Shown here in pieces: positions 26,375 to 61,543 of a stretch of 64,000 bases of DNA. The notes below the pieces were generated by a model, which saw nothing but the letters and a program-made list of their open reading frames with translations, was not told the origin of the DNA and did not search any database. The first letter of the stretch is position 1; the number at the start of each line of letters is the position of its first letter. Position numbers and translations under genes: made by a program. Origin of the DNA: Chloracidobacterium sp. (GTDB lineage Bacteria > Acidobacteriota > Blastocatellia > Pyrinomonadales > Pyrinomonadaceae); the NCBI GenBank assembly GCA_016716305.1, contig JADJWP010000001.1:350391-414390 (forward strand), given 5' to 3'.

Positions 26375-27181
26375 TTACTTCGGAGCCGCCCCGGTCACAG
26401 TAAACTTCATGTCCTGCGAAGTTTGCGAGAGCTTGCGATCATTTGCGTTGAACGCCTCGACCTTGGCGGTGTAGTTTCCTGGAACCAAAGGCTTGTCAAG
26501 ACTTACCGACGTACCATCCACGCGTTTGCTTATATAATCAAAATTGGTCTCAGCTCCGCTGGCGCTATCAGCATGAATGCTGTATTTGTAATAAGCCGCG
26601 TCCGGATATGCGTCCCACTTTATCTCGATACCCGCAGCTGCGACTTTTGAACCAGCTTTGGGGCTCACCAGCTTTAAGTCATTCTTGTAGAGGTGCGTAT
26701 CCGGAGCAAAAAAAGTCTTACCGTCCTCGATATTGTATTTTGCCGCAGAAATGATGCCTGAGGTAGCAAAAACAAAATAGGGTGTATCAAAAACCTTGAC
26801 CGTAAGCCCTTCATAAATACCAGGGGGAACATCTTTTATCAAATACTCTCCTGAATCATCTGTTTTAGTGGTCAATGCATCTGCGCCGCAGCCGCCCATA
26901 TACTGGTTGAAAGTTTTACAAAGCTTGACCTCTACTCCAGCCGCCGGCTTTTCGTTAAAGAATGCCTTACCTTGAACATTTGCTTTTCCGGCAGCTGGCT
27001 TCTCCTTTTCGACCCCAGTGCCTGATGGGATGGTTCCGTCTTTGTTTGGTTGTACGGCCGCTTTGTTCGAATTCGCCGATGCAGAACTGGCATTAGTTTG
27101 GCTGGGATCAGATCCACAACCTCCAGTGATCAACGAAACCACTACAAACCCTACACACGCTAACGTATTTACTCTCGACAT
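26375..27181 (-). CDS. lipoprotein of unknown function
   Basis: Lipobox 'VVVSLITGGCGSD' and a low-complexity linker. 'VEVKLC...TTKTDDSGEYLIKDVPPGIYE' resembles a CarboxypepD_reg-like beta-sandwich. Confidence 0.55.
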   Translation of the reverse strand: MSRVNTLACVGFVVVSLITGGCGSDPSQTNASSASANSNKAAVQPNKDGTIPSGTGVEKEKPAAGKANVQGKAFFNEKPAAGVEVKLCKTFNQYMGGCGADALTTKTDDSGEYLIKDVPPGIYEGLTVKVFDTPYFVFATSGIISAAKYNIEDGKTFFAPDTHLYKNDLKLVSPKAGSKVAAAGIEIKWDAYPDAAYYKYSIHADSASGAETNFDYISKRVDGTSVSLDKPLVPGNYTAKVEAFNANDRKLSQTSQDMKFTVTGAAPK

Positions 27182-27317: not shown

Positions 27318-30221
27318 CTAATCCAACATCGCCTTCAAAGCCTGTCCGGTGAACGACCTCCTGACCTTTGCAACCTCCTCGGGCGTTCCCGTTGCGACCA
27401 CCTTACCGCCGCCAGAGCCGCCTTCGGGACCGAGGTCGATTATATAATCGGCTGATTTTATCACGTCCAGATGATGCTCGATAACGATCACCGTGTTTCC
27501 CGTATCGACGAGCTTTTGCAGAACATCGAGCAGCCTGTGAACATCGGCAAAATGAAGCCCTGTGGTCGGTTCATCAAGGATGTAAATAGTTTTTCCGGTC
27601 GCTCGTTTTGATAACTCCTTGGCGAGTTTGATCCGTTGTGCCTCGCCGCCGGAGAGCGTGGTCGATGATTGCCCGACCTTGATATAGCCAAGGCCGACGT
27701 CTAGCAGGGTCTCCAGCTTTTGCCTGATCTGCGGAATGTTCTCAAGCAGCGGCAAAGCGTCTTCGATCGTCGTGTCGAGCAGGTCAGCGATCGAGAGCCC
27801 TTTGTATTTGACGGCGAGCGTTTCGCGGTTATAGCGGTGGCCTCGGCAAACGTCGCAGGTGACGTAAACATCCGGCAGGAAATTCATCTCTATCCGCTTC
27901 ATCCCATCGCCTTCGCAGGCTTCGCAGCGGCCGCCCTTTACATTGAACGAGAAACGGCCGGCCTTATAACCTCGCTGCCGCGATTCGGGCAGCATGGCAT
28001 ATAGGTCACGTATCGGCGAGAACAGTCCCGTATATGTCGCGGGATTCGAACGCGGCGTGCGCCCGATCGGCGATTGATCGATCTCGATTATCTTGTCTAC
28101 GAGATCGATGCCCTCGATCGAATCGTGTTCTAACGGCTGCAAATTCGATCTATAAACCTGTTTGTAGAGCGCCGGATACAGAATATCCTCGACCAGGGTC
28201 GATTTGCCCGAGCCCGAAACGCCCGTAACCACCGTCAAAAGCCCGAGCGGGAATTCGACGTCAATATTCTTGAGGTTGTGCGCGCGTGCCCCTTTTACTT
28301 TGATCCGGCTGCCGTTCGGCAATCGACGAAACTCAGGAATCTCGATCTTCACTTCGCCCTTGAGATATTTGCCCGTCAATGAGGCTTCGGTGTTTTTGAT
28401 CTCGCTCGGTGAACCGACAGCGATGACCTCGCCGCCGTGCGTCCCGGCCATTGGCCCAAGATCGATGACGTAATCTGCGTTTTCGATCGTTTCTTCGTCG
28501 TGTTCAACGACCAGGACCGTATTGCCGAGGTCGCGAAGCTTTTGAAGCGTATCCAGCAGCTTTCTGTTGTCGCGCGGATGGAGCCCGATGCTCGGTTCAT
28601 CCAATACGTACAACACACCTCGGAGATGTGATCCGATCTGCGTTGCCAGCCTTATGCGTTGACCTTCGCCGCCCGATAGCGTCCCGGATCCGCGATCGAG
28701 CGTCAGATATCCGAGCCCGACCGCATCAAGAAACTGCAGCCGGCCATTTATCTCTTTGAGGACAAGTCCGGCGATCTTTTCTTCGCGCTTCGTTAGCTTG
28801 ATCTCGGCGAATCGTTTGACGGCCTCGGTGATCGGCAACGCGGTATATTCGCCGATACCTCGTCCGTTTATCCTTACGGCAAGGCTTTCGGGCTGGAGCC
28901 GAGCACCGTTGCAGATCGGACATGGAACGGGAGCGACCAATTCGATCAGGGCCTCACGCGTTTTCTCGGACGGCGGATTCTCGAGCCGCTCCTTCATCGC
29001 CTTCAATGCACCTTTCCAGTCGCTCTCGTATTTATACTCGCCCTGGCGAAATGTCAGCCGTTTCTTTGTTCCGAAAAGAAAGGCGTTTCGGATCTCTTCA
29101 GGAAGTTCGGCGAACGGAGTTTCGATCAGGCTCTTATGACCGTCTGCTTCCGTAATGACATCCGCCTTTTTTCGTTTTCCTTTCTTCCGTGCCCTCGCTC
29201 CCTCGACCGGCGGTTCGAGCTTGTCTCCGTCGACGAATCGTTCGATGATGGCCAGCAACGCTGATCGTAGAAACGATGCTCCCGAACGGTCAGCTCCGCT
29301 GAGAAACTCGATCTTTCCGGCAGCGATCGAAGGGTCGGGTACGATCTTATTGACATCGATCTCCATCACCGTCCCTATCCCCTGACAATGTTTACACGCC
29401 CCGTAGGCCGAGTTGAACGAAAACGATCGCGGCTCAAGCGTGGCGATGTTGATTCCGCAATCGACGCACGCCATCTTTTCCGAATAGAGCTTTTCGTCGC
29501 CATCGACGATCGAAACAAGTACGCCTCCGTTCGCCAGTTTTAGCGCGGTTCTGACCGATTCATTCAGACGGTCCTTTACGCCGTCTTTTATCAAAAGCCG
29601 GTCGACGACGATCTCGATCGTGTGATTTCGACGTTTATCGAGGATTATCTCCTCGTCGAGCTGCCGCATCTCGCCGTCGATCCGGGCTCTGACAAAGCCG
29701 TCTTTGTGAAACTTTTCCAGCTCCTTTTTGAATTCACCCTTTCGGCCGCGAACGACCGGGGCAAGGATCATTACCCGTTCACCGTTCGGGAGTTCAAGGA
29801 TCCCGCCGACGATCTGTTCTACTGTTTGCCTTGTGATCGGCGCACCGCATTGGTGGCAATGAGGCTGACCGATCGACGAGAACAGAAGTCTCAGGTAATC
29901 GTATATTTCGGTAACGGTACCAACAGTTGAACGAGGGCTTCGAGAAACGGTCTTTTGTTCGATCGAGATCGCAGGGCTTAAACCTTCGATCGAATCGACA
30001 TCCGGCTTTTCGAGCTGATCAAGGAATTGACGGGCGTAAGCCGACAACGATTCGACATAACGCCTCTGGCCCTCGGCGTAGATCGTATCGAATGCAAGCG
30101 ACGATTTACCCGAGCCTGAAAGGCCGGTGATCACGGTGAACTTATCGCGAGGGATCTCGACGTCGATGTTTTTGAGGTTATGTTGGCGTGCCCCGCGGAC
30201 AGTGATCTGCTTGATGCTCAT
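27318..30221 (-). CDS. uvrA: excinuclease ABC subunit A
   Basis: 967 aa. '[61 protein letters not shown]', two ABC modules and Zn-finger Cys clusters. Confidence 0.97.
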
Positions 30222-42723: not shown

Positions 42724-43614
42724 ATGAGTATGCGATTTCCCCGATCCTTGCAGCTGACGTTGATCGCTGCCTTTGCGGTCATTGGAGCCGCCGCCCAGTC
42801 GGCCGTCAAGTACAATTACGAATACAAGTGTCCCGAAACAGTGATCGTAAACTATTGTCGCAACGATAGCGGACAGAAGGTCCATGAGGATGACAATTAT
42901 TGCAACGTTGAGTATCCCGACCGACCGCGGAGGGTCCCGACGATCCCCGTTTCCCGTTCAGTAGTAAGATCGGTTCTAGCGGTTGAGTTAAAGAACTGCA
43001 AAGGACCGGCGGCGGACGACCCCGCGATCGCAAAAGCGGCCGCGGCAAAGGTTGACACTGAGGTTTTCGGGATTCAGCTTGGCGATCCGTTCACCCTTCC
43101 CGCATGTCCAGTGTTTCAGGTCGGCGGGGCGGGACTCCAGACCTGCCACGGAGCACTCGACGACATGTTGGCAAAGTTCGCCCGGCCCGGCGGCCTAAAT
43201 CCAGATCCGGTCGATATTAAAACCGTGTATCTTGCGACCGACAAATGTCCCTCCTGGGTAAACCAGTGCACGTTGGTCGTTCGTTCGGATGCGGGCAAGG
43301 TCGGGTTCATCGGCGTGTTCACAAAGGGCCCGGGCGTCGACGTTCAGGTGCGAAACGTCCTTGCAGAAAAATACGGCGGCTGGTCGCTAAAAGGCGATGC
43401 CACGGTAACTCCCGGCAATACGGACAGGCAGCCGTTCAAAATAACTCAGTATTGGTGGAATCTTCCGGGCCTTTACGTTCATTACCAGCCCGTTTGGTCG
43501 ACTGACGATGGCGAGACACCAAACATCCGCGAAGGCCTGATCAGGATCGAGACCGAAACGGCGAGAAAACTTCGCTTGGCCGATGAGGCAAGAAAACCAA
43601 AGCCAAAGATGTAA
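42724..43614 (+). CDS. secreted hypothetical protein
   Basis: AGGAG precedes the ATG. Signal peptide 'LTLIAAFAVIGAAAQS'. Several Cys residues. No family recognised. Confidence 0.5.
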   Translation: MSMRFPRSLQLTLIAAFAVIGAAAQSAVKYNYEYKCPETVIVNYCRNDSGQKVHEDDNYCNVEYPDRPRRVPTIPVSRSVVRSVLAVELKNCKGPAADDPAIAKAAAAKVDTEVFGIQLGDPFTLPACPVFQVGGAGLQTCHGALDDMLAKFARPGGLNPDPVDIKTVYLATDKCPSWVNQCTLVVRSDAGKVGFIGVFTKGPGVDVQVRNVLAEKYGGWSLKGDATVTPGNTDRQPFKITQYWWNLPGLYVHYQPVWSTDDGETPNIREGLIRIETETARKLRLADEARKPKPKM

Positions 43615-47601: not shown

Positions 47602-47669
47602 GCGGACTATTCGGAGTGGAGACGAAAGGTATGTTTCGGATCAAACGATCGACATTGGGGAGAAAAAAT

Positions 47670-48367
47670 ATGAGAAGAGCGATTTTATTTAGTATTGCGA
47701 TGTTTGCAGCATTTGGCCTGAGCGGATGCAGCTACAACGAATTGACTGCGAAACAGCAGAACGTCAAAGGCAAATGGGCCAACGTTGAAAGCTCAATGCA
47801 GCGACGGGCCGATCTGATCCCGAATCTCGTTGAAGCTGCCAAGATGTCAGCCGTCCAGGAACAGGAAGTCTTTGGCCAGATCGCCGACGCTCGATCGCGG
47901 CTGCTGAACGCCCAGCAAGCAGCGCCGCAGGGCGAGGGTGGCGACAAAGCCCCGAGCAAAAACAGGCTGTGATCGAAGCTAACAACAGTTTTGGCGGTAC
48001 GATCGGAAGACTCCTTATGCTTCAGGAGCAATATCCTCAGCTGCGTTCGAACGATGCGTTCATGAAAGTTCAAGATGAACTCTCAGGCACTGAGAACCGC
48101 ATCAATACCGCTCGTCTCGATTACAACGATGCCGTTACCGATTACAACACTACGCGGAATTCATTTCCGGCAGTGTTGACCGCCGGTCTGCTCGGTTTCA
48201 AAGAGGAACCGTTCTTTAAGGCTGAGGAGGGATCGCGAACTGTTCCGAATATCGGGAACGCAAATGACCTGCGGCGTAATCAAGCCCCGGCAAATAACGC
48301 CCCGCCGACGGCAAATCCGCCCGCGGCCAACGCTCCGGCGTCGAACGGTCCGGCCTCAAATAATTGA
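47670..48367 (+). pseudogene. LemA family lipoprotein, split by one frameshift near 47950-47956 (possibly an assembly artefact)
   Basis: Lipobox 'AAFGLSGC'. 'VKGKWANVESSMQRRADLIPNLVEAAK' in frame 0 continues as 'EQKQAVIEANNSFGGTIGRLLMLQEQYPQLRSNDAFMKVQDELSGTENRINTARLDYNDAV..YNT..NSFPA' in the frame of ORF 47969..48367. The break lies at a CCCC run. Confidence 0.8.
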
Positions 48368-48389: not shown

Positions 48390-48713
48390 TCAGAATCCGC
48401 GCGAACTGCACATCGCGCAGTGGTCGCAAGGCCTGGCGTTCGGTTCGAACGTACAGGCCTTTTCATTTTGCGGCCTGCCAAATACCTCGTCAGCGATCGC
48501 CTCGGCGATAGTGAAGCGGTTCTGGGAAGGATGTTGCGAAGTTGTTATTTGCGAGCCGATCTTCGGTATCGCAGTTGCGCCTTCAAGTTTATCGAGCCGG
48601 TGATTTATCTTCTCAAGACTGGCAAAGATGGGCGCGAGTCTGTCTGTTGATTCGTCTGCTTCCAGCAGCCTTGCGATCTTTGCAGCGAGTTTTTGATTTT
48701 CACTCATGATCAT
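48390..48713 (-). CDS. BMC-locus small protein: N-terminal amphipathic helix plus a C-terminal C-x8-C-x2-C-x2-C motif
   Basis: 107 aa. 'SENQKLAAKIARLLEAD' at the N-terminus and 'EKACTFEPNARPCDHCAMCSSRGF' at the C-terminus. Its start lies 3 nt from the stop of the upstream BMC-P gene. Confidence 0.55.
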   Translation of the reverse strand: MIMSENQKLAAKIARLLEADESTDRLAPIFASLEKINHRLDKLEGATAIPKIGSQITTSQHPSQNRFTIAEAIADEVFGRPQNEKACTFEPNARPCDHCAMCSSRGF

Positions 48714-48716
48714 TTA

Positions 48717-48998
48717 CTAAAGATCTGAAAGCAAGTCGATGTAGTCAACAACACCTACGATCGCTGAATCGATGGCGGCTCCCGGACGCCCGGTCGCGGC
48801 AGTTGATGCGGACCAACCCTCCTGGGCAATTATCACCAGGTCGCCTTCGCCCGAATTGACCGAATCAAGCGCGAGGCATGTGTAATCCATATCAATGCCG
48901 TCGGGCGTCACCTGACGACACAGCATTATTCGCGTTCCCTCGTAACGCTGGTTCTTTTGCGAGGCAACTACGTTGCCGATTACGCGGGCTATCAGCAT
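48717..48998 (-). CDS. BMC-P pentameric vertex shell protein (EutN/CcmL family), copy 3
   Basis: 'MLIARVIGNVVASQKNQRYEGTRIMLCRQV...LALDSVNSGEGDLVII...IDSAIVGVVD'. Confidence 0.9.
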   Translation of the reverse strand: MLIARVIGNVVASQKNQRYEGTRIMLCRQVTPDGIDMDYTCLALDSVNSGEGDLVIIAQEGWSASTAATGRPGAAIDSAIVGVVDYIDLLSDL

Positions 48999-49007
48999 AA
49001 CTGGATC

Positions 49008-49286
49008 TCACGCTCGCTGAAACACATGTTTTTCTGAATCGATTATCCCGACTATTGTGCAGTCGGTAGGCGTTTCGTCACGCTTGAATGGAAACGACGC
49101 TTCTTTGCCGCGGCACCAAAAGACAAGCTCACCAATACCGGCTCCGACCGCATCAAGAGCGACCATCGGACTGCCCTTCGGCCTAAGGTCGGCATCGAGC
49201 GTTTGCACAAGAAGGAACTTTCGGCCCTCGAGCGTTCCATTCTTTATGGTCGAAACGACCGTTCCAATCACTCGTGCTATCTGCAT
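49008..49286 (-). CDS. BMC-P pentameric vertex shell protein (EutN/CcmL family), copy 2
   Basis: From the internal ATG: 'MQIARVIGTVVSTIKNGTLEGRKFLLVQTLD...VALDAVGAGIGELV...DCTIVGIID'. Confidence 0.9.
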   Translation of the reverse strand: MQIARVIGTVVSTIKNGTLEGRKFLLVQTLDADLRPKGSPMVALDAVGAGIGELVFWCRGKEASFPFKRDETPTDCTIVGIIDSEKHVFQRA

Positions 49287-49288
49287 AT

Positions 49289-49684
49289 CTACTTTGCCTG
49301 GCTTCGATAGGTCGCAAGTGCGGTCGCCAAAAAACATGCGATGAGTAAGACACTGTACTCCATTCCGTTTCGGCCCGCTCCGACGACGAACCAGCCTTCT
49401 TTCCAATGGACCATTGCAACCCCGGCCGAAAGTTGTGCTGCAAAGACCAGAGCTATGACCCAGGCATAGAAACCTGCGGCAAACAACACGCTGCCGATCA
49501 ATTCGAACAATGTTATGGCCCACGCCAGATAAAATCCCAAAGGGAATCCCTGAGCACCAAGGAAACCGCCGAGATCATCGACCGTACCATTCCCTATTCG
49601 GGCGGCTCCGTGGATGAACATCAAAACTGCGAGGATGATTCGTAGGAAGACAAGGGCGGTTGATCTGTTGTCGCCGAATCTCAT
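49289..49684 (-). CDS. DoxX family integral membrane protein embedded in the shell-gene string
   Basis: 131 aa with four TM segments. 'LRIILAVLMFIHGAARI...LFELIGSVLFAAGF...GVAMVHWKEGWF' is DoxX-like. Its stop is 2 nt from the next ATG and its start is 1 nt after the upstream stop. Confidence 0.8.
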   Translation of the reverse strand: MRFGDNRSTALVFLRIILAVLMFIHGAARIGNGTVDDLGGFLGAQGFPLGFYLAWAITLFELIGSVLFAAGFYAWVIALVFAAQLSAGVAMVHWKEGWFVVGAGRNGMEYSVLLIACFLATALATYRSQAK

Positions 49685-49685
49685 T

Positions 49686-49961
49686 CTACTCAGCCTTAGT
49701 AAAGTCGATTGTATCTATCACCCCGATGATCGCTGAATCGACCGGGCAGTCCTTGTTGCCCTCAGCCATTCGGGCCGACGAACCGCCTACGACAATGACC
49801 TTTTCATGATAGCCGGCTCCGACCGTATCGACCGCGACAACATAGCCGCTCTGATCTTTTCCGTCAAGATCGATCGGTTTGACGATGAGGAGCTTCTTTC
49901 CCTCCAATCGCTCATCTTTCTGGGTCGAAACGACCGTCCCTAAAATTCGTCCAATTATCAT
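49686..49961 (-). CDS. BMC-P pentameric vertex shell protein (EutN/CcmL family), copy 1
   Basis: From the internal ATG: 'MIIGRILGTVVSTQKDERLEGKKLLIVKPID...VAVDTVGAGYHEKVIVV...VDSAIIGVID'. Confidence 0.9.
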   Translation of the reverse strand: MIIGRILGTVVSTQKDERLEGKKLLIVKPIDLDGKDQSGYVVAVDTVGAGYHEKVIVVGGSSARMAEGNKDCPVDSAIIGVIDTIDFTKAE

Positions 49962-50034
49962 TATTTGTGTAGAACGAGAACCGTCGACCGCCGCGGTGCC
50001 CGCCACCGTCGCCGACCACGTACACAGAGCCGGT

Positions 50035-50313
50035 CTACTTCATTACGACAGGGAGCCGTTCGTCGACACTTGCGTGCGGCCTCGGAATAACGTGGACGCT
50101 TACCAACTCACCGACCCGTCGGGCGGCTGCGGCTCCGGCGTCCGTGGCAGCTTTGACCGCTGCGACATCACCGCGAACGATAGCCGTTACAAATCCGGCC
50201 CCGATCTTTTCGTAGCCGACTAGCTGTACGTTCGCCGCCTTCACCATTGCGTCTGCTGCCTCGATCATTGCAACGAGACCTTTTGTCTCAACCATTCCTA
50301 ATGCTTCCTGCAT
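50035..50313 (-). CDS. BMC-H hexameric shell protein (PduA/CcmK-like, single BMC domain)
   Basis: '[58 protein letters not shown]...[10 protein letters not shown]'. Confidence 0.93.
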
Positions 50314-50362
50314 TTAGTTCGTGCTCCTGATTGCGATTGGAAAATTCAAATGCCCCGATAGT

Positions 50363-51163
50363 TTAACCCAGATTCGCTGCCTGGCTCAAAAGCTCGATCA
50401 ATTCTTCACGGGTAAACGACACCTTTTCCCCGTTTGATGCCTTTCCGGCCGGATACTGGACCTCCAACTCGCAGGAGATACCTGCATCATGAAGGTAGCC
50501 GCATGCCTGACAACGAGCGTTTTCGCGTAGGTATCCGGCCTTTTCGCGGATATTTATCAGCTTTTCGATCGCATCCTGAGGCAGGTCGTTCGCTCCGCCG
50601 AGTGCTTTGGCAAGAATAGCGATCCTTGCGGTATGTTCCAATGTTTCAAGCCTGTCGAATGCTTGCCAAAGATCATCACCGTAAGCAACAGCTCCATGAT
50701 TCGCCATAAGAAGCGCGTTGTGATGCTCAACAAAGGGCTTCATCGCCTCTGTCAGCTCGTTGGTCGACGGCGTTCCGTAATCAGTGAGCGGCACGCAGCC
50801 AAGCGTGAGGATCACCTCCGAAAGGATCGGTTTGTCGATCGCCAGGCCCGCAACAGCAAACGCCGTCCCGTGCGGCGGATGCGCATGACATACGGCCTTG
50901 ATGTCCGGTCTCATCTTATAGATAAGCAAGTGCATTGCCAGCTCTGACGAAGCTCGCTTGTCCGAAAGCGGCCTGCCTTCCATATCCGTTAAGGCAAGGC
51001 AATCTTCGGTCATCCGTCCTTTGCAGGTCATCGTCGGTGTCGCAAGTACTGTATTCTCGTCGAGCCTGATACTCACGTTGCCGTCAGATGAGACAACGTA
51101 GCTCCTCTCATAGAGCAGCTTGCCGATCTCCACGATCAGTTTTCGTGCTGATTGTTCGTCCAT
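50363..51163 (-). CDS. class II aldolase/adducin-family enzyme (fuculose/rhamnulose-1-phosphate aldolase-like) with a ~60-aa C-terminal extension
   Basis: 'DGNVSIRL', Zn ligands 'VCHAHPPHGTAFA' and 'LMANHGAVAYG'. The extension is 'RCQACGYLHDAGISCE...VSFTREELIELLSQAANLG'. An alternative GTG start lies at 51178. Confidence 0.88.
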   Translation of the reverse strand: MDEQSARKLIVEIGKLLYERSYVVSSDGNVSIRLDENTVLATPTMTCKGRMTEDCLALTDMEGRPLSDKRASSELAMHLLIYKMRPDIKAVCHAHPPHGTAFAVAGLAIDKPILSEVILTLGCVPLTDYGTPSTNELTEAMKPFVEHHNALLMANHGAVAYGDDLWQAFDRLETLEHTARIAILAKALGGANDLPQDAIEKLINIREKAGYLRENARCQACGYLHDAGISCELEVQYPAGKASNGEKVSFTREELIELLSQAANLG

Positions 51164-51233
51164 AAAGCAAGAAACCACAGATTAACACAACTCGAATGTT
51201 GCGTTAACCTGTGGCCTTGGTTCTTCAAGAAAA

Positions 51234-51569
51234 CTATTTGACCGTAACGGTCTTCATTTTGATCTCTTTGACGGGTGGTGCCGGTGGGGCCGGTACGTCA
51301 AGTTCCTTCGGGATCGTCAATTCGACCTCAGAGACCTCGGTCGCCCGCCGCAGTTCTTCTAACTGCTGACGCAGCCTTATGTTTTCGTTACGAAGTTCCT
51401 TGTAATGCGGACGCTTTTTCTTACAGTCGCTGTGTCCATAGCTTGTCGATCCGCTGCGCGATTCGATTGTCGGGACACTTAATGGCACAAAAATACTTGC
51501 GATCAACAATCCCGCTCCGAAAGTCAAAGCGAAGGGAATGGCTCTCTTAAATACTGCGGTCAAATTCAT
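51234..51569 (-). CDS. hypothetical single-pass membrane protein with a coiled-coil segment
   Basis: TM segment 'IPFALTFGAGLLIASIFVPL', then 'YKELRNENIRLRQQLEELRRATE' and a Pro-rich tail. It sits between rex and the aldolase gene. Confidence 0.45.
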   Translation of the reverse strand: MNLTAVFKRAIPFALTFGAGLLIASIFVPLSVPTIESRSGSTSYGHSDCKKKRPHYKELRNENIRLRQQLEELRRATEVSEVELTIPKELDVPAPPAPPVKEIKMKTVTVK

Positions 51570-51592
51570 ACTTCACCTCTTGATTAATACTA

Positions 51593-52273
51593 CTAGCGTT
51601 TACGGCGGGTATTTCGTTTTGGTTTCAACCCGGAGCCATTTATACTCTCGGTTCCCGCAAGAAAGAATGACAAGCTTTCAAGACACGTCGTCAGATCGAC
51701 CGTTCGAACCTTCAGGTGGTCTGTCGCTTTCAGCGGAACGGGTGCGAAATTCATCACGGCCTTTATACCGGCTTTCGCAACGAGTTCGAGTACCCGTTCG
51801 GCGGAATCTGCAGGGACGGCGATCACCGCAATATCTATGTTATTCCTTTTTACGACAGACTGAAAGTTTTTTATGTCAAAAATCTCAGCTCCGCCCACTT
51901 TTTTTCCGATCTTTTTCGCATCCGCATCGAACAGGGCCTTGACCGAAAAATTCGATTTGCGAAAACCGTTGTAATCAGCCAGCGCCGTGCCGAGTCTTCC
52001 CGAACCGATAATGCATACATTATGATCATGATCCAGACCGAGAATGGTCCGCAAATTATCGATCAGCGTATCAACATAATAACCGACCCCGCGAATACCG
52101 AATTCGCCGAAGTAAGCAAGGTCCTTACGTATCTGAGCTGAGTTCAAATGAAACCGCTTGGCAAGGGCCGCGGACGAGACCGTACTCTGTCCTTCCGATC
52201 GAAGCTCCAGCAAACAGCGGAGATAGATGCTCAAACGATTGGTGGTGAGTTCTGAGATCTTTTCGGCTTTCAT
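51593..52273 (-). CDS. rex: redox-sensing transcriptional repressor Rex
   Basis: 'RLSIYLRCLLEL...VSSAALAKRFHLNSAQIRKDLAYFGEFGIRGVGYYV' is the winged helix. 'VCIIGSGRLGTALADY' is the Rossmann NADH site. Confidence 0.88.
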   Translation of the reverse strand: MKAEKISELTTNRLSIYLRCLLELRSEGQSTVSSAALAKRFHLNSAQIRKDLAYFGEFGIRGVGYYVDTLIDNLRTILGLDHDHNVCIIGSGRLGTALADYNGFRKSNFSVKALFDADAKKIGKKVGGAEIFDIKNFQSVVKRNNIDIAVIAVPADSAERVLELVAKAGIKAVMNFAPVPLKATDHLKVRTVDLTTCLESLSFFLAGTESINGSGLKPKRNTRRKR

Positions 52274-52378: not shown

Positions 52379-52396
52379 TGTTTCAGGTGTGAAACA
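52379..52396. promoter_or_regulatory. perfect palindrome TGTTTCA-GGTG-TGAAACA in the rex/ruvA divergent intergenic region
   Basis: Read directly. 7-bp arms with a 4-nt spacer, 106 nt upstream of the rex start and 44 nt upstream of the ruvA start. Confidence 0.3.
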
Positions 52397-52439: not shown

Positions 52440-53049
52440 ATGATCGCCTATTTATCGGGTACGATTCTCGAAAAAACCGCAGGAACCGTGATCGTCGACG
52501 TAGGTGGCGTCGGCTATGACGTAACGATCCCATTGTCGACATTTTATGAGCTTGGCGAGGTCGGCAGCGAGGTTTCGCTGAGGATCTATACATACGTTCG
52601 CGAAGACGCTTCAGCTTTTCGGGTTCAAGACCGCACGCGAGCGTGAACTTTACCTGAAATTGATATCAGTTCAGGGCGTCGGGGCAAAATCGGGAATCAC
52701 AATGCTTTCGGGTATGAACGCCGACGAGATCATTGCGGCCATCAGGACGGATGATCTCGCAAAGTTGACTGCGATACCGGGTGTCGGGCGAAAAACGGCG
52801 GAACGACTCGTGATCGAACTCCGCGATAAGGTCGGCGAACTCTCGCATTCCACTGCCGCCGGCAGTCATCAGTCGACATCCGCCGGAAGCGCCGGCGAAG
52901 AAGTACTCGACGACGCGCTTTCGGCCCTGACAAATCTCGGATACAAAAAGGACGCTGCTGAAAAGGCACTCCAACAGGCGATCAAAGATGGAACCGAGCT
53001 TAACGTACAAAAACTGCTCCGGGCGGCTCTCCAACGACTCGCGAAATAG
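52440..53049 (+). pseudogene. ruvA: Holliday junction helicase subunit RuvA, with one frame break near 52608 (probably an artefact)
   Basis: 'MIAYLSGTILEKTAGTVIVDVGGVGYDVTIP...YTYVREDA' then a shift to 'LQLFGFKTARERELYLKLISVQGVGAKSGITMLSGM...IPGVGRKTAERLVIEL'. Confidence 0.88.
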
Positions 53050-53154: not shown

Positions 53155-53916
53155 TTGATGCGCAATGTTCTGCAGCAATTTTCCAAGGATCTGGCCATTC
53201 TTGATCGAAAAGCCGTGATCTCGCTTGTTTACGCGGCATTCGGACTGACGTGTATCTTTTATCTTAAGAACCAACCGGCGGTCGCCTCCTTTTTTGCTGG
53301 TACCTCACTAGCCGATTTTGGAAACTTCATCGCCAACTCACCTTCGAATAATCTGCCCGGTCTTGGCTGGTGGGTCTTTATCGTGACCGTCTTCTACGTT
53401 TTGCTGCCCGTTCTGATAATTAAACTCGTCTGGCGCGAGAATCTGCGCGATTTCGGTCTGAAATTCTCGATCGAAGAAGGCTTCTGGAAGCTTTTGGCCG
53501 CCTGTACGGTAACCATGATTCCGCTCGTTTACTTGATGTCGCTCACATCGGGCTTTGCGGCGAAGTATCCGTTCCTGCATATTTACAACGGCGAGCCCTA
53601 CATCGGGACGACGCTGCTTCTTTGGGAACTGATATACTTCTTACAGTTTTTCGGGCTCGAGTTTTTCTTTCGCGGGTTTCTGGTGCACAGCCTGAAGCCT
53701 TCGCTCGGTCTTTACTCGATATTTGTTATGACCGTGCCATATTGCATGATACATTTCGGAAAGCCGGCTGCCGAGACGTTCTCAGCGATCATTGCCGGCA
53801 TCTTTCTCGGCTGGCTAAGCTATCGCAACGGCAGCATCTGGCTGGGATTGATACTACATTGCGCGGTCGCGTTTTCGATGGATATCTTTGCACTTTTTAA
53901 CAAGGGACTTTTGTGA
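53155..53916 (+). CDS. CPBP family (CAAX/Abi-like) intramembrane metalloprotease
   Basis: Multi-TM protein. '[10 protein letters not shown]' is the EExxxR-type motif, with 'CMIHFGK' and 'ILHCAVAF'. Its stop overlaps the ruvB GTG start by 4 nt. Confidence 0.8.
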
Positions 53917-54946
53917 CAACCTCTGCCGCAATTAACATCCGTGACGAAGAGCTAACGCCCGAGGAATCTAAATTCGAGGCGACGCTTCGGCCTGCGCAGC
54001 TTGCCGAGTATATCGGGCAGCAAAAGGTAAAGGACAATCTCCGCGTGTTCATGAAAGCGGCACTTAAACGCCGCGAGGCTTTGGATCATATCCTTTTGAC
54101 CGGCCCGCCCGGAGTCGGCAAGACGACGCTTTCGAACATCGTCGCTAACGAAATGGGTGCCGCACTCAAATCGACGGCAGGCCCGATAATCGAAAAGGCC
54201 GGCGACCTGGCGGCGATCCTGACCAATCTCGAAGAGGGTGATGTCCTTTTCATCGACGAGATACACCGCCTCAATCCTGCTATCGAAGAAATTCTTTATC
54301 CGGCGATGGAGGATTACAGCCTGGATCTCATGATCGGGCAGGGCGGCCGCACGCTCAATAAAGCTCGAACTGCCAAAATTCACGCTTGTCGGAGCAACGA
54401 CGCGGCCCGGAATGATCACGGCGCCGCTCCGCGGCCGTTTTGGCATTATTTTCATCTTGATTTTTATGGCGTAAGCGAGCTGCAGCAGATCGCTGAACGC
54501 TCCGCCGGCATTCTCGAAGTTGAGATCGACGCGAGCGGCTCAAATGAAATAGCTCGCAGGTCGCGCGGAACGCCGCGTATCGCCAACCGTCTGCTTCGCC
54601 GTGTCCGTGATTACGCTGAGGTCGATCACGACGGAAAATTACCGAACACGTTGCGAATGATGCTCTCAACCGGATGGAGGTAGACACCTACGGCCTCGAC
54701 GAAATGGACCGTAAGCTACTAATGACGATCATCGAGAAATTCGACGGCGGCCCGGTCGGCCTCGGCACGCTGTGTGCGTCGCTCCACGAAGAAAAAGACT
54801 CGATCGAAGAGATCATCGAACCATATCTGCTGCAGATAGGCTTTCTTAACCGAACGCCTCGCGGGCGAATGGCGACGCGGCTTGCTTACGAGCATTTCGG
54901 GATCGACCTTCCTGCAAAGGCCGTCGCTCCGACACTTTTCGAATAG
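53913..54946 (+). pseudogene. ruvB: Holliday junction helicase RuvB, with three frame breaks at homopolymer runs (probably artefacts)
   Basis: '[19 protein letters not shown]...[14 protein letters not shown]...FIDEIHRL'. The alternate frame gives '[37 protein letters not shown]'. The text then returns to 'HLDFY...[16 protein letters not shown]', then shifts to '[26 protein letters not shown]...PRGRMAT'. Breaks lie at the G-run 54341-43, the T-run 54449-52 and the A-run 54635-38. Confidence 0.9.
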
Positions 54947-57318: not shown

Positions 57319-57361
57319 TTTGGCAACGATCTGTGGGCGTCGTGAGGAGGTAGCAATACAC

Positions 57362-58180
57362 ATGAGTCGGTATCTCAACAAAACGTTAGCTCTGGCAGCT
57401 CTCTGTATTACCCTGGGAATAACGAATTCGCTGGGGCAAAGTAAATTAACAAACAGGAATAATCGAGAACTATCAACGGTTTTTTCGGATCTGGCGAACT
57501 TTCATTCGGCAACCTATGAGCAATCGTTGCGCGCACTTTTTTCGTTGCCGCCGAGTCAATTCGACAGTGTGTTGAATGCGGTGACGAGCTCGAACCTCGA
57601 CGAATCCGATGGGGCTCAGCGTTTAATTAGATATCTCGGCGACCGTGAACTTCTGAGTAAACTAGTCGAAAATTGCAAAACGCGCTGCTTGCTTTCTGGC
57701 CCGGTGCCAATTCCGCTTCATCCGCTAGACTATCGTGAAATCGAGTATCTGACGAGAGCAGGCGACGTCTGTAAATGGGGTGAATTCGATATGAGATACG
57801 TATTTGCTCTTTTTCTCGACACCACACAGCCAGCTCTAGAGTTGCGGAGGCGAGTAGAAAACGGCTCCCGCCAATGTGCATCAAACGCGATATTGACATC
57901 AACGATCCGAACAATTCACGACACAAAAGGACTTGAAACCGCGTTTACTTTACAGAATTCAGTTGAAGCAGTCCGATCCGAGCTGTTTTTCTTAACCGAA
58001 GTCGAAAGGGAACGTGCGAAGATTCAATTTCTAGGTTTCAATTTCCAAAAGAATCGCGCGCTGTTCGAAGTTCTAGTAAACAACGGAATTCTCGCAAGTC
58101 GTTACGTCCATGTTGTTTTTCACAAGGTCGATTCGAAGAATTGGCAATTCTATTCGATCACCGTGGTGAACCAGTCGTAA
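57362..58180 (+). CDS. hypothetical secreted protein/lipoprotein in low-GC DNA (immunity-like position after the RHS core fragment)
   Basis: GAGGAGG lies 8 nt upstream of the ATG at 57362. Signal peptide 'MSRYLNKTLALAALCITLGITNSLGQ'. Visibly AT-richer than its flanks. Confidence 0.5.
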   Translation: MSRYLNKTLALAALCITLGITNSLGQSKLTNRNNRELSTVFSDLANFHSATYEQSLRALFSLPPSQFDSVLNAVTSSNLDESDGAQRLIRYLGDRELLSKLVENCKTRCLLSGPVPIPLHPLDYREIEYLTRAGDVCKWGEFDMRYVFALFLDTTQPALELRRRVENGSRQCASNAILTSTIRTIHDTKGLETAFTLQNSVEAVRSELFFLTEVERERAKIQFLGFNFQKNRALFEVLVNNGILASRYVHVVFHKVDSKNWQFYSITVVNQS

Positions 58181-59325: not shown

Positions 59326-61543
59326 TCAGGGTTCACTTATTCCCTTGCAGATTTCCGCGGATGTCTTTGCCGCACACACGATCTTTTTCAACTCGGTGAG
59401 TTGCTCTCGAAGACTGTCGATCTCCGCTTGCTGCTGCTTCACCGCATTCACGAGGACCGTAGTGATCTGTTTGTACTTGACTCCTTCGATCTCGCCTTTC
59501 GCGTTTTGAGTCGCAAGAGCGAGAACCGACAGTTGCAACCTCCTCCGCAGCAAAGCCTATGTCAAGAAGCCCGCCGCTATTCCACTGGAATGCGATAGGC
59601 CTCAGGCGGCGCACGACCTCAAGACCACGGTCATAAGGTTCGACATTTGATTTGTAACGCAGGCTGGACGGCACGAGGGCAGATTGAAAGTTGCGGCGTT
59701 CTGACAAACATCTATCGAACCACCCGACGGTGACAGCGTCGCACGCAGAAAGCCATAGACGACGACATCATCACCAAGTGAGCCGCTGGGATTCGCGAAG
59801 TTGCGTCCGAGGACTATCGTGTTGCTCGTGCTGACAACCGCCTCTGCGCCGATCGCCGTTGCATGGCTTACTATCCCCGACGTATTGGCGTTCCATCCGA
59901 TCACAGTGTTGGCGTCACCGACCGTATTCGCCTTTCCGGCCTGATAGCCGTAGAACGTATTCGCATTTCCGGTAGTGGTCATCTGGCCAGCTTCATAGCC
60001 GGCGTAAGTGTTGTATAGACCGTCGGTATTCCCGTATCCGGCCTGATATCCGAGAAACGTGTTGTTACTGCCAACCGTATTGCTTGCTCCAGACCCCGTG
60101 CCAAAGAATGAATTTGTCGAGCCGGTCGTATTCGACACGCCTGCCGCATACCCAAAGAAGGAGTTGTTGAGCCCTGGTCGTGTTTACTCGGCCCGCTACT
60201 TTTCCGAAAAAGGCATTCTGGCTCCCGGTCGTATTTGTAAGACCTGCGAAGTATCCGAAAAACGAATTGTTGATCCCGCTGTTTGAGGCTCCGGCCTCGT
60301 AGCCAAAGAATGAATTATCGCTGCCGGTGTTGTTCCTTCCGGCGAGGGCGCCAAAGAACGAATTGTGTTCTCCTAAGGTGTTGGACGATCCCGCCCGAAA
60401 ACCGAAGTAGGAATTTGACGAGCCGTTCGTGTTCAAATCTCCCGCAGCATATCCAAAGAACGAATTTCGATCTCCCTGCCAGTTGGCTTTGCCGGCTTCG
60501 CTTCCGAAAAACGCGTTCTCGTCGCCAGTATTCGCCTCGCCCGCGAGATAGCCGAAAAAAGAGTTACCGGACGCGTTTGAATTTGTCGCGCCCGCGCGAT
60601 AACCGAAAAAGGAATTGTTTGAGGTCGTGCTGTTCTCGCCTGCTCCGCTGCCGAAGAACGAGTTGAACGCGCCGGCCAAATTCAATAATCCGCTATGCCG
60701 TCCGAAATACGAATTGTGACTTCCGGTCGTGTTGATATCACCGGCCCGCATTCCGAAGAACGAATTGTTCGAGCCCGTCGTATTCACGCGGCCGGCAGAC
60801 GAGCCGAAAAATGAATTTGCCGCCCCCAAGCTGTTCGCATTGCCGGTGTTCGTTCCAAAGTAGGAGTTATCAACTCCGCCCGGGCCACCTGCGTTCAATC
60901 CGACGAACAGCGTGTTCGATCCCGGCCCGATCCCAATGAGGCGGAAGCCGCCGTAGTTGAATTGCGCCGCCGAGACGATATTCGCCGACATGTTTCCGGT
61001 GATGCTGAAGTTTGCGTTCTGAATGAACGCGGAGTTCTGAATGTAGTTTGTGCTGCCGGCAAGGGGTGTACGCGCGTTGCTCATCCTCGGATCGTTTGTC
61101 AGAACGAATTGATCTGCGGCGATGCCGCCGAGTTGGAAGGCGTTTTCCGCGATCGCGCTTTTTATCGAATATGGGGCTGAATTTACTTGTACGCGAGGAG
61201 ACAATGCTTGAAAAGTGCCGGTCCCGGCGGGACGCAGAGAAATTTCGAGCCATCGATTCGAGCCGGGAAACTGTGCACCGAAGTCGAGTCGGAGTGCGAA
61301 TATTCCGTTTGTTACGGCTATGTTCGGGCGAGACAAGCTCGCGATAGGCGTACCGCCCGTCTCGACCGAATACAAACTGACGATGAAATCATAGCTGCCC
61401 GTTGCCGGCGTCATACCATCATTCAATTTGCCCTGATATGTGAACTCGGTCGTTTGCGCCCCCGCGGCAAGGGCCGAAAACAAAAGAATTGCAAGACAAA
61501 GCGGACCGATCGCGTTAGTAGGCGACACTCGATTACTGTTCAT
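59326..61543 (-). pseudogene. second tail-fibre-like repeat protein with an S74 chaperone C-terminus, interrupted by three frame breaks
   Basis: ORF 60065..61543 carries the signal peptide, 'EFTYQGKLNDG' head and NSFFG repeats. ORF 59602..60138 carries more repeats. 59333..59707 gives 'SSLRYKSNVEPYDRGLEVVRRLRPIAFQWNSGGLLDIGFAAEEVATV'. 59326..59553 gives 'QNAKGEIEGVKYKQITTVLVNAVKQQQAEIDSLREQL'. Breaks lie at about 60175, 59670 and 59526. Confidence 0.8.

Follow-up and report, generated by a model that had tools for sequence, protein, structure and literature searches.

The bacterial microcompartment (BMC) type named ACI was defined in the catalogue of Sutter, Melnicki, Schulz, Woyke & Kerfeld (2021, Nat Commun 12:3809, Supplementary Data 2; PMC8217296) from 125 loci confined to Acidobacteria, mainly subdivisions 4 and 6. 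As described there, the ACI main locus encodes an aldolase of family PF00596 with a C-terminal encapsulation peptide (EP), a BMC-H shell protein with standard motifs, a triplet of BMC-P proteins that are usually adjacent and belong to different clades (green, grey and orange), one apiece, a 2-hydroxyacid dehydrogenase (PF00389/PF02826) and three proteins that lack homologues. One of these three has three conserved histidines, and one is very short (~80 aa) with an EP at the N-terminus and three cysteines conserved at the C-terminus (PMC8217296). The ACI aldehyde dehydrogenase (AldDh, PF00171), with its EP near the C-terminus, sits on a satellite locus in most genomes, and PduS/PduT pairs occasionally accompany ACI loci (PMC8217296). 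Here we analyse a nine-gene cluster in a 64,000-nucleotide (nt) stretch of Chloracidobacterium sp. DNA (assembly GCA_016716305.1, contig JADJWP010000001.1, positions 350,391 to 414,390), hereafter the window. We conclude, with a probability of roughly 0.85, that this cluster represents an ACI-type BMC main locus in a Pyrinomonadaceae/Blastocatellia (Acidobacteriota subdivision 4) genome. The locus is genuine and intact, and it belongs to a type that is catalogued and biochemically uncharacterised.

A class II aldolase accompanied by three BMC-P proteins also marks PVM, reportedly the Planctomycetes-Verrucomicrobia fucose/rhamnose BMC of Erbilgin et al. 2014. PVM loci further encode the AldDh PvmJ, the PduL-type phosphotransacylase (PTAC) PvmB, the acetate kinase PvmG and several BMC-H proteins, together with lactate/malate dehydrogenase-family and flavoprotein genes (PMC8217296). 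All of these extra PVM components (AldDh, PTAC, acetate kinase, dehydrogenase, flavoprotein and several BMC-H) are missing from the cluster studied here, and the host phyla differ. The original prediction for this DNA, made from its letters alone, had drawn the comparison with PVM; it holds for the shared parts, the PF00596 aldolase and the BMC-P triplet, and for nothing beyond them. In the catalogue the ACI aldolase is distinct from that of PVM and most similar to those of HO and MIC3, and the ACI AldDh groups only with that of MIC3 (PMC8217296). HO (Haliangium ochraceum) loci likewise have a BMC-P triplet according to the catalogue, with the aldolase and two BMC-P of type I HO on a separate locus. 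They occur in Myxobacteria and carry BMC-T(dp) and an AldDh in the main locus, whereas the window has neither BMC-T nor AldDh.

The cluster is a compact and real gene set. An ORF check of the window recovered nine co-directional minus-strand open reading frames (ORFs) across 48390-52273, flanked by lemA and ruvA and running from rex through a transmembrane (TM)/coiled-coil ORF, the aldolase, BMC-H, BMC-P1, a DoxX gene, BMC-P2 and BMC-P3 to a cysteine-motif (Cys) protein, with gaps of 23, 70, 49, 73, 1, 2, 9 and 3 nt. Pfam and NCBIfam profiles support seven of the nine, and the BMC, EutN_CcmL, aldolase, DoxX and Rex families that the original prediction proposed to check were all matched. The genes are not chance ORFs: BMC-H, the aldolase and the BMC-P proteins share 90-99%, 74-91% and 68-100% identity, respectively, with ~80-150 related loci. 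The strand, packing, coordinates and flanks first described were therefore borne out, as was the count of one BMC-H (PF00936) and three BMC-P (PF03319), with three start codons shifted. The aldolase begins at the ATG at 51163 and has the same 266-aa length in all homologues, and homologues also place the starts of BMC-P1 at 49961 and BMC-P2 at 49286; a 171-aa ORF overlapping DoxX is an over-extension of the latter.

The shell is encoded by a single canonical BMC-H and by three BMC-P paralogues divergent from one another. As read from its sequence, BMC-H carries the interface motifs KAAN (VKAANV) and PRPH (IPRPHA). The BMC-P paralogues are 35-41% identical to one another (P1 to P2, 41%; P1 to P3, 36%), P3 being the most divergent, and each makes up an orthologous group of its own, conserved and in fixed order, with DoxX lying between P1 and P2 in the window. 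The identities across loci (Table 1) point to strong purifying selection on the shell genes. A six-frame search of the 64 kb turned up neither a BMC-T nor any additional BMC or EutN domain, and Pfam detected no AldDh (PF00171), PduL (PF06130) or acetate kinase (PF00871) among the 49 window ORFs, in line with the absence of all four reported at the outset.

The signature enzyme is predicted to be a Zn-type member of the class II aldolase family. The PF00596 match covers residues 14-187, and E74, H93, H95 and H156, which by our own comparison we take to be equivalent to the metal ligands of FucA, are invariant in the alignment. Within the class II aldolase/adducin superfamily, its best profile and Protein Data Bank (PDB) matches lie in the branches of OtnC (3-oxo-tetronate 4-phosphate decarboxylase) and of FucA, the nearest PDB entries being 6VOQ/6VOP, followed by FucA structures. 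It nevertheless scores far under the cutoff of every named NCBIfam subfamily (OtnC, the best, 142 bits against 250; FucA, 110 bits against 250). Unlike free-living OtnC and FucA enzymes, it adds a C-terminal extension of ~60 aa in which a Cys-x2-Cys...His...Cys segment is joined by a linker to an amphipathic helix. Within the segment (ARCQaCGYLh...C), C218, C221, H225 and C231 are conserved, as is the terminal helix (REELIxLLsQAaxL), which is presumed to be an EP.

The last gene of the cluster encodes a good marker of the ACI type. The Cys protein begins with an amphipathic helix (LAEKIAxLL), likewise a presumed EP, and continues through a coiled coil and an HPSxEKF motif to a C-terminal motif C-x8-C-x2-C-x2-C...RGF. 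Its tail, C-x-FEP-x3-4-PCDxCxMCxxRGF, is invariant, with C87, E90, P91, C96, D97, C99, C102, G106 and F107 conserved throughout. No relative was found in Pfam, NCBIfam or the PDB, where a profile search returned coiled-coil noise alone. The AlphaFold2 (AF2) model places helices at 5-21, 23-47 and 62-78 (pLDDT 73.6, pTM 0.31), with the Cys tail at moderate confidence. The family comprises 156 clusters at 50% identity and occurs in at least 548 GTDB species genomes and at least 549 metagenome contigs. In both the aldolase (C-terminal) and this four-Cys protein (N-terminal), the terminal amphipathic helix is set apart from the protein body in EP fashion, and the features of the two fit encapsulated cargo with a metal site.

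These components match the catalogued ACI main locus. Shared with it are the subdivision 4 acidobacterial host, a PF00596 aldolase whose C-terminal extension ends in an amphipathic helix, a single BMC-H with KAAN and PRPH motifs, a set of three divergent BMC-P that would correspond to the catalogued triplet, a main locus lacking AldDh, and a small Cys protein in which an EP-like helix stands at the N-terminus and conserved cysteines at the C-terminus. Contig L171 (DMF69), which we take to belong to the MAG (metagenome-assembled genome) series of the catalogue, shows the same compact aldolase-H-P-P-P-Cys layout followed by LemA; L-numbers, L001 to L174, label the related loci and contigs throughout. 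In the BMC-P tree of the catalogue, a Blastocatellia MAG protein is labelled "ACI (main)" (PMC8217296). Among the options first offered for this cluster, a BMC class restricted to Acidobacteria was thus the right one, and that class already bears a name (PMC8217296). The claim of novelty falls, since the gene set is essentially a named type, and the suggestion of a satellite is reversed: with a full shell set and signature enzyme, the cluster is itself a main locus. As to whether the catalogue covers DoxX, the Cys protein and Rex, the Cys protein is described there, and Rex and DoxX lie outside its text and hidden Markov model (HMM) table.

The core of the locus is an invariant module at a fixed chromosomal site. 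Wherever a locus holds the full six-gene set, the genes follow one another as aldolase, BMC-H, P1, P2, P3, Cys on the same strand, in 69 of 69 genome loci and 21 of 21 metagenome contigs, which answers the synteny check that had been proposed. In Pyrinomonadaceae-type loci one flank is ruvB-Rce1-ruvA and the opposite flank is lemA-240aa-TPM-dnaX, and this fixed position between ruvA and lemA indicates vertical inheritance. The best 80 genome loci are nearly all from Pyrinomonadaceae or Blastocatellia. The nearest aldolase homologues (85-99% identity) come from Pyrinomonadaceae/Chloracidobacterium MAGs, the nearest BMC-H homologues from MAGs likewise named Pyrinomonadaceae, Blastocatellia or Chloracidobacterium, and public metagenome and MAG contigs match the window itself at 99.97% identity.

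Table 1. Features of the BMC locus, with window coordinates and identity to the window across related loci
Feature	Position	Strand	Basis	Identity
rex, redox-sensing (NADH/NAD+) transcriptional repressor	51593..52273	-	PF06971 + PF02629; NF003995 (253.8 bits, cutoff 126)	61-70%
TM/coiled-coil ORF, 111 aa	51234..51569	-	no family match (Pfam, NCBIfam)	
Stem-loop with U-rich tract, terminator- or attenuator-like	51172..51217	-	terminator prediction, folding energy	
Class II aldolase-family signature enzyme, 266 aa	50363..51163	-	PF00596 (Pfam, E 5e-46)	74-91%
BMC-H, canonical hexameric shell facet protein, 92 aa	50035..50313	-	PF00936 (Pfam, E 8e-31)	90-99% (99 loci)
BMC-P paralogue 1, pentameric vertex protein, 91 aa	49686..49961	-	PF03319 (E 2e-30)	78-96%
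DoxX-family integral membrane protein, 131 aa	49289..49684	-	PF07681 (E 2e-10)	52-79%
BMC-P paralogue 2, 92 aa	49008..49286	-	PF03319 (E 8e-30)	71-90%
BMC-P paralogue 3, 93 aa	48717..48998	-	PF03319 (E 6e-19)	68-100%
Cys protein, 107 aa, ACI-specific	48390..48713	-	conserved Cys tail; no family match	

Several observations weigh against the ACI assignment or leave parts of it to prediction. A 2-hydroxyacid dehydrogenase (PF00389/PF02826) was found neither among the 49 window ORFs by Pfam nor in or within 6-10 kb of ~170 related loci. For the 80 genome loci this check covered the conserved genes within 6 kb (flanking these loci are ruvA, ruvB, Rce1, lemA, TPM and dnaX) and Pfam scans of representative inserted genes; the metagenome loci have the same gene layout. 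The enzyme is also missing downstream in L171. Searching outward from distant homologues of the Cys protein (including P0241) or of BMC-H reached no locus bearing a hydroxyacid dehydrogenase or AldDh; every locus so reached was compact or more reduced. The hydroxyacid dehydrogenase lies outside the Blastocatellia form of ACI, and we regard it as frequent in part of ACI and not as defining the type. Nor is a three-histidine protein evident in the window or related loci: the TM/coiled-coil protein has no conserved histidine and DoxX has two. The AldDh of this genome would, we infer, lie at a satellite locus outside the window. A phmmer search with an approximate E. coli EutE sequence gave no AldDh match in six-frame translations of the window and of all loci with 10-kb flanks, weak evidence that agrees with a satellite AldDh. 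No Rex box (TTGTGAA-N4-TTCACAA-like, up to three mismatches) occurs anywhere in the window. The AF2 model of the aldolase is poor (pLDDT 44), and its helix at 252-263, following a coil, has low confidence. Encapsulation, aldolase activity and metal binding are all things that we infer from sequence.

The window and its ~170 Blastocatellia relatives thus depart from the catalogued ACI in lacking a hydroxyacid dehydrogenase and an obvious three-histidine protein. They depart as well in their Cys protein, of ~105-125 aa with four invariant cysteines against ~80 aa and three in the catalogue. In the window, moreover, the BMC-P triplet is interrupted by DoxX, and rex and the TM/coiled-coil gene stand upstream; none of these three genes appears in the catalogue's text or HMM table. 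What is new is therefore a compact, dehydrogenase-less form with four rather than three cysteines, its accessory rex, TM and DoxX genes, and a conserved hairpin that separates rex and the TM gene from the rest. The Rex and DoxX associations are small additions to the catalogue; a literature search found nothing relevant on either in connection with BMCs, and no follow-up work on ACI.

In contrast to the invariant core, rex, the TM/coiled-coil gene and DoxX vary between lineages and are accessory. rex adjoins the BMC locus in 20 of 53 genome and 5 of 10 metagenome loci (25/63, ~40%), and in two divergent lineages, L170 and L172, it directly precedes or overlaps the aldolase gene. The TM gene lies upstream of the aldolase in 74 of 76 Pyrinomonadaceae-type loci (60/62 genome, 14/14 metagenome) and is missing from more distant lineages (L170, L172-L174 and the P0271 locus). 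Its product has a hydrophobic (TM) helix at the N-terminus together with a coiled coil and a Pro-rich tail, with the motifs KRxxPFxLTFaxGLfIASFFV, L..EN..LR.EN and VPPPPxP conserved among 75 homologues. DoxX, the least conserved gene of the locus, occurs in 31 of 75 genome and 8 of 33 metagenome loci (39/108, ~36%). Elsewhere the P1-P2 junction holds a CarboxypepD_reg/TPR protein (~25 loci) or is empty, and other junctions hold Uma2, 23S-rRNA-IVP, DUF2059, SPFH, methyltransferase or TonB_C inserts. Two TIR-domain genes are inserted in L170, and HicAB and MNT/HepT toxin-antitoxin pairs in L172-L174. Because the P1-P2 junction varies and the other junctions take unrelated genes, DoxX seems to be a passenger, one among many, and not a core gene. 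The shell operon looks like an insertion hot spot; among L010-L174 the insert sites include P1-P2, TM-aldolase, aldolase-BMC-H and P3-Cys.

A conserved hairpin divides the accessory genes upstream from the core. Its 20-pair stem and U-rich tract end ~8 nt before the aldolase ATG (dG -32.3 kcal/mol, z -6.4), and in most related loci the structure is conserved over 15 pairs, three of them with compensatory changes. Even where other genes are inserted, it keeps to the TM gene's 3' end, and for that reason it behaves like a terminator or attenuator of a rex/TM unit. Loci in which this gap is short have no space for a separate promoter, and the BMC genes would be read through from upstream. Describing the locus as headed by Rex is accurate for the window; it does not hold as a defining feature, given a rex gene adjacent in ~40% of loci and the hairpin between rex/TM and the aldolase.

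Rex control is plausible for the family and unsupported for the window locus itself. In 16 of 30 relatives a Rex-like box precedes rex by 37-83 nt, ~70-fold over a background of 0.049 per kb; TTGCGAACTTTTTCACAA is an example of such a site. The loci concerned are L027, L057, L061-L063, L076, L080-L082, L084, L085, L088, L100, L134, L140 and L159, and the boxes are missing in the nearest relatives of the window, L008, L020, L026 and L046. The proposed control by NADH/NAD+ through Rex thus gains candidate sites in relatives and finds none in the window.

A perfect palindrome, TGTTTCA-N4-TGAAACA, lies at 52379-52396 between rex and ruvA. Its core, GTTTCA-N4-TGAAAC, is present in 27 of 31 loci with rex and 22 of 38 without, always beside the ruvA start and often abutting the ruvA ATG. 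We rejected it as a Rex operator, since it is equally conserved beside ruvA in rex-less loci and touches the ruvA start codon. It probably serves as an operator for ruvA and not for the BMC locus. A role as a LexA/SOS box is unsupported, with no copy before uvrA (27318-30221) in the window.

On the ACI reading, the organelle would work as follows. Inside the shell the aldolase-family enzyme would cleave or decarboxylate a phosphorylated sugar or sugar acid, yielding dihydroxyacetone phosphate (DHAP) and a reactive aldehyde; sugar-phosphate aldol cleavage to DHAP and an aldehyde within a shell is probably a logic shared with PVM. The shell would retain the aldehyde for oxidation by the EP-bearing AldDh. 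The four-Cys protein may bind a metal or Fe-S centre and act as a redox or cofactor-recycling partner, or it may be a scaffold. Transcription could start at a promoter upstream of rex and the TM gene and read through the conserved hairpin, which would set the regulator-to-structural-gene ratio. In many relatives a Rex-like operator could couple expression to NADH/NAD+; none is recognisable in the window.

The same genes admit other readings. The cluster could be a self-sufficient minimal organelle encapsulating only the aldolase and the four-Cys protein, with no AldDh, PTAC or alcohol dehydrogenase anywhere in the genome. An invariant, compact six-gene core, only two proteins with EP-like helices, and the lack of AldDh and hydroxyacid dehydrogenase in the 64 kb or within ~10 kb of ~170 loci are all what this would predict. 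The catalogue, however, consistently places the ACI AldDh of most genomes on a satellite locus (PMC8217296), so its absence near a main locus is expected for ACI and uninformative about the rest of the genome. For that reason we do not favour a minimal organelle and regard it as unlikely. Quite doubtful as well is the broader proposal that the Blastocatellia form is a distinct ACI subtype dispensing with AldDh, in which the four-Cys protein acts inside the shell as a new redox partner with a metal or Fe-S site and Rex, the TM protein and DoxX couple the organelle to NADH and the quinone pool. If a PVM-like fucose/rhamnose metabolosome had its main locus elsewhere in the genome and the cluster were its satellite or degenerate copy, the shared PF00596 aldolase and three BMC-P and the core enzymes missing from the window would be accounted for. 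This we reject as wholly improbable: with its own facet protein, all three vertex paralogues and a signature enzyme, the cluster has the composition of a main locus, its aldolase falls under both the FucA and RhaD family cutoffs, and its chromosomal position is fixed and vertically inherited within Acidobacteria.

The accessory genes invite one further explanation, a Rex-controlled and membrane-connected variant in which the TM protein tethers the shell, the four-Cys protein and DoxX feed electrons to the quinone pool, and Rex switches the operon on at high NADH. rex, the TM gene and DoxX are indeed packed tightly against the shell genes on the same strand, divergent lineages again show rex linked to the aldolase, and Rex-like boxes precede rex in about half of the relatives. 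Four invariant cysteines suggest a metal or Fe-S site, and PduS/PduT pairs occasionally occur with ACI loci (PMC8217296). Yet DoxX is present in about a third of loci and elsewhere gives way to an unrelated TPR protein or to nothing, and unrelated genes (TIR, toxin-antitoxin, Uma2, DUF2059) have entered the operon at other points. rex is absent from ~60% of loci and the TM gene from some lineages, the hairpin stands between rex/TM and the BMC genes, and the window has no Rex box. We consider such a variant very unlikely, and an ACI main locus with lineage-variable accessories remains the preferred reading.

The locus is not a new system; it sharpens a target by splitting an invariant six-gene core from variable passengers. 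ACI is among the most widespread BMC types without experimental characterisation, in a phylum that is dominant in soil, and the Cys marker also occurs in hundreds of soil metagenome contigs. The Rex-like boxes are a first hint of redox (Rex) control for ACI, and the six-gene module is of a size that suits it as a minimal construct in heterologous work on shell and cargo.

A shorter version of the locus occurs in one distant lineage, which includes a 9.5-Mb contig. In L172 (8259-11308), L173 (9198-12030) and L174 (5494-8994), the (rex-)aldolase gene, a small ORF, BMC-H and a single BMC-P lie beside ruvA, followed downstream by toxin-antitoxin genes and then nadE. No Cys protein and no further BMC-P were found nearby, and the aldolase keeps its EP-like C-terminal helix and lacks the CxxC segment. 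This locus is either reduced or fragmented.

Four other ORFs of the window gave no Pfam match at E<=1e-4: 60065-61543 (minus strand, 492 aa), 42724-43614 (plus, 296 aa), 57320-58180 (plus, 286 aa) and 26375-27181 (minus, 268 aa). A 4.8-kb acidobacterial piece stands among cyanobacterial genes such as hetR in Leptolyngbya sp. 7M (CP070897.1, 6.99 Mb; L009, 9364-14178). It runs from a truncated rex through the gene after lemA and is 99.98% identical to the acidobacterial contig L008. Most likely this is a chimeric assembly from a non-axenic culture and, less likely, a very recent transfer.

The genes flanking the cluster in the window carry apparent frameshifts. lemA (47616-48367) is read in two frames, with the window one base short at ~47947, and is intact (232 aa) in all six near-identical public contigs (L001-L006). 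ruvA (52440-53049) looks split into 68 and 129 aa in two frames, and ruvB (53913-54683) looks truncated by a frameshift to 256 aa against ~346. The pattern suggests indel errors of the assembly; all nine genes of the BMC locus are free of these frameshifts.

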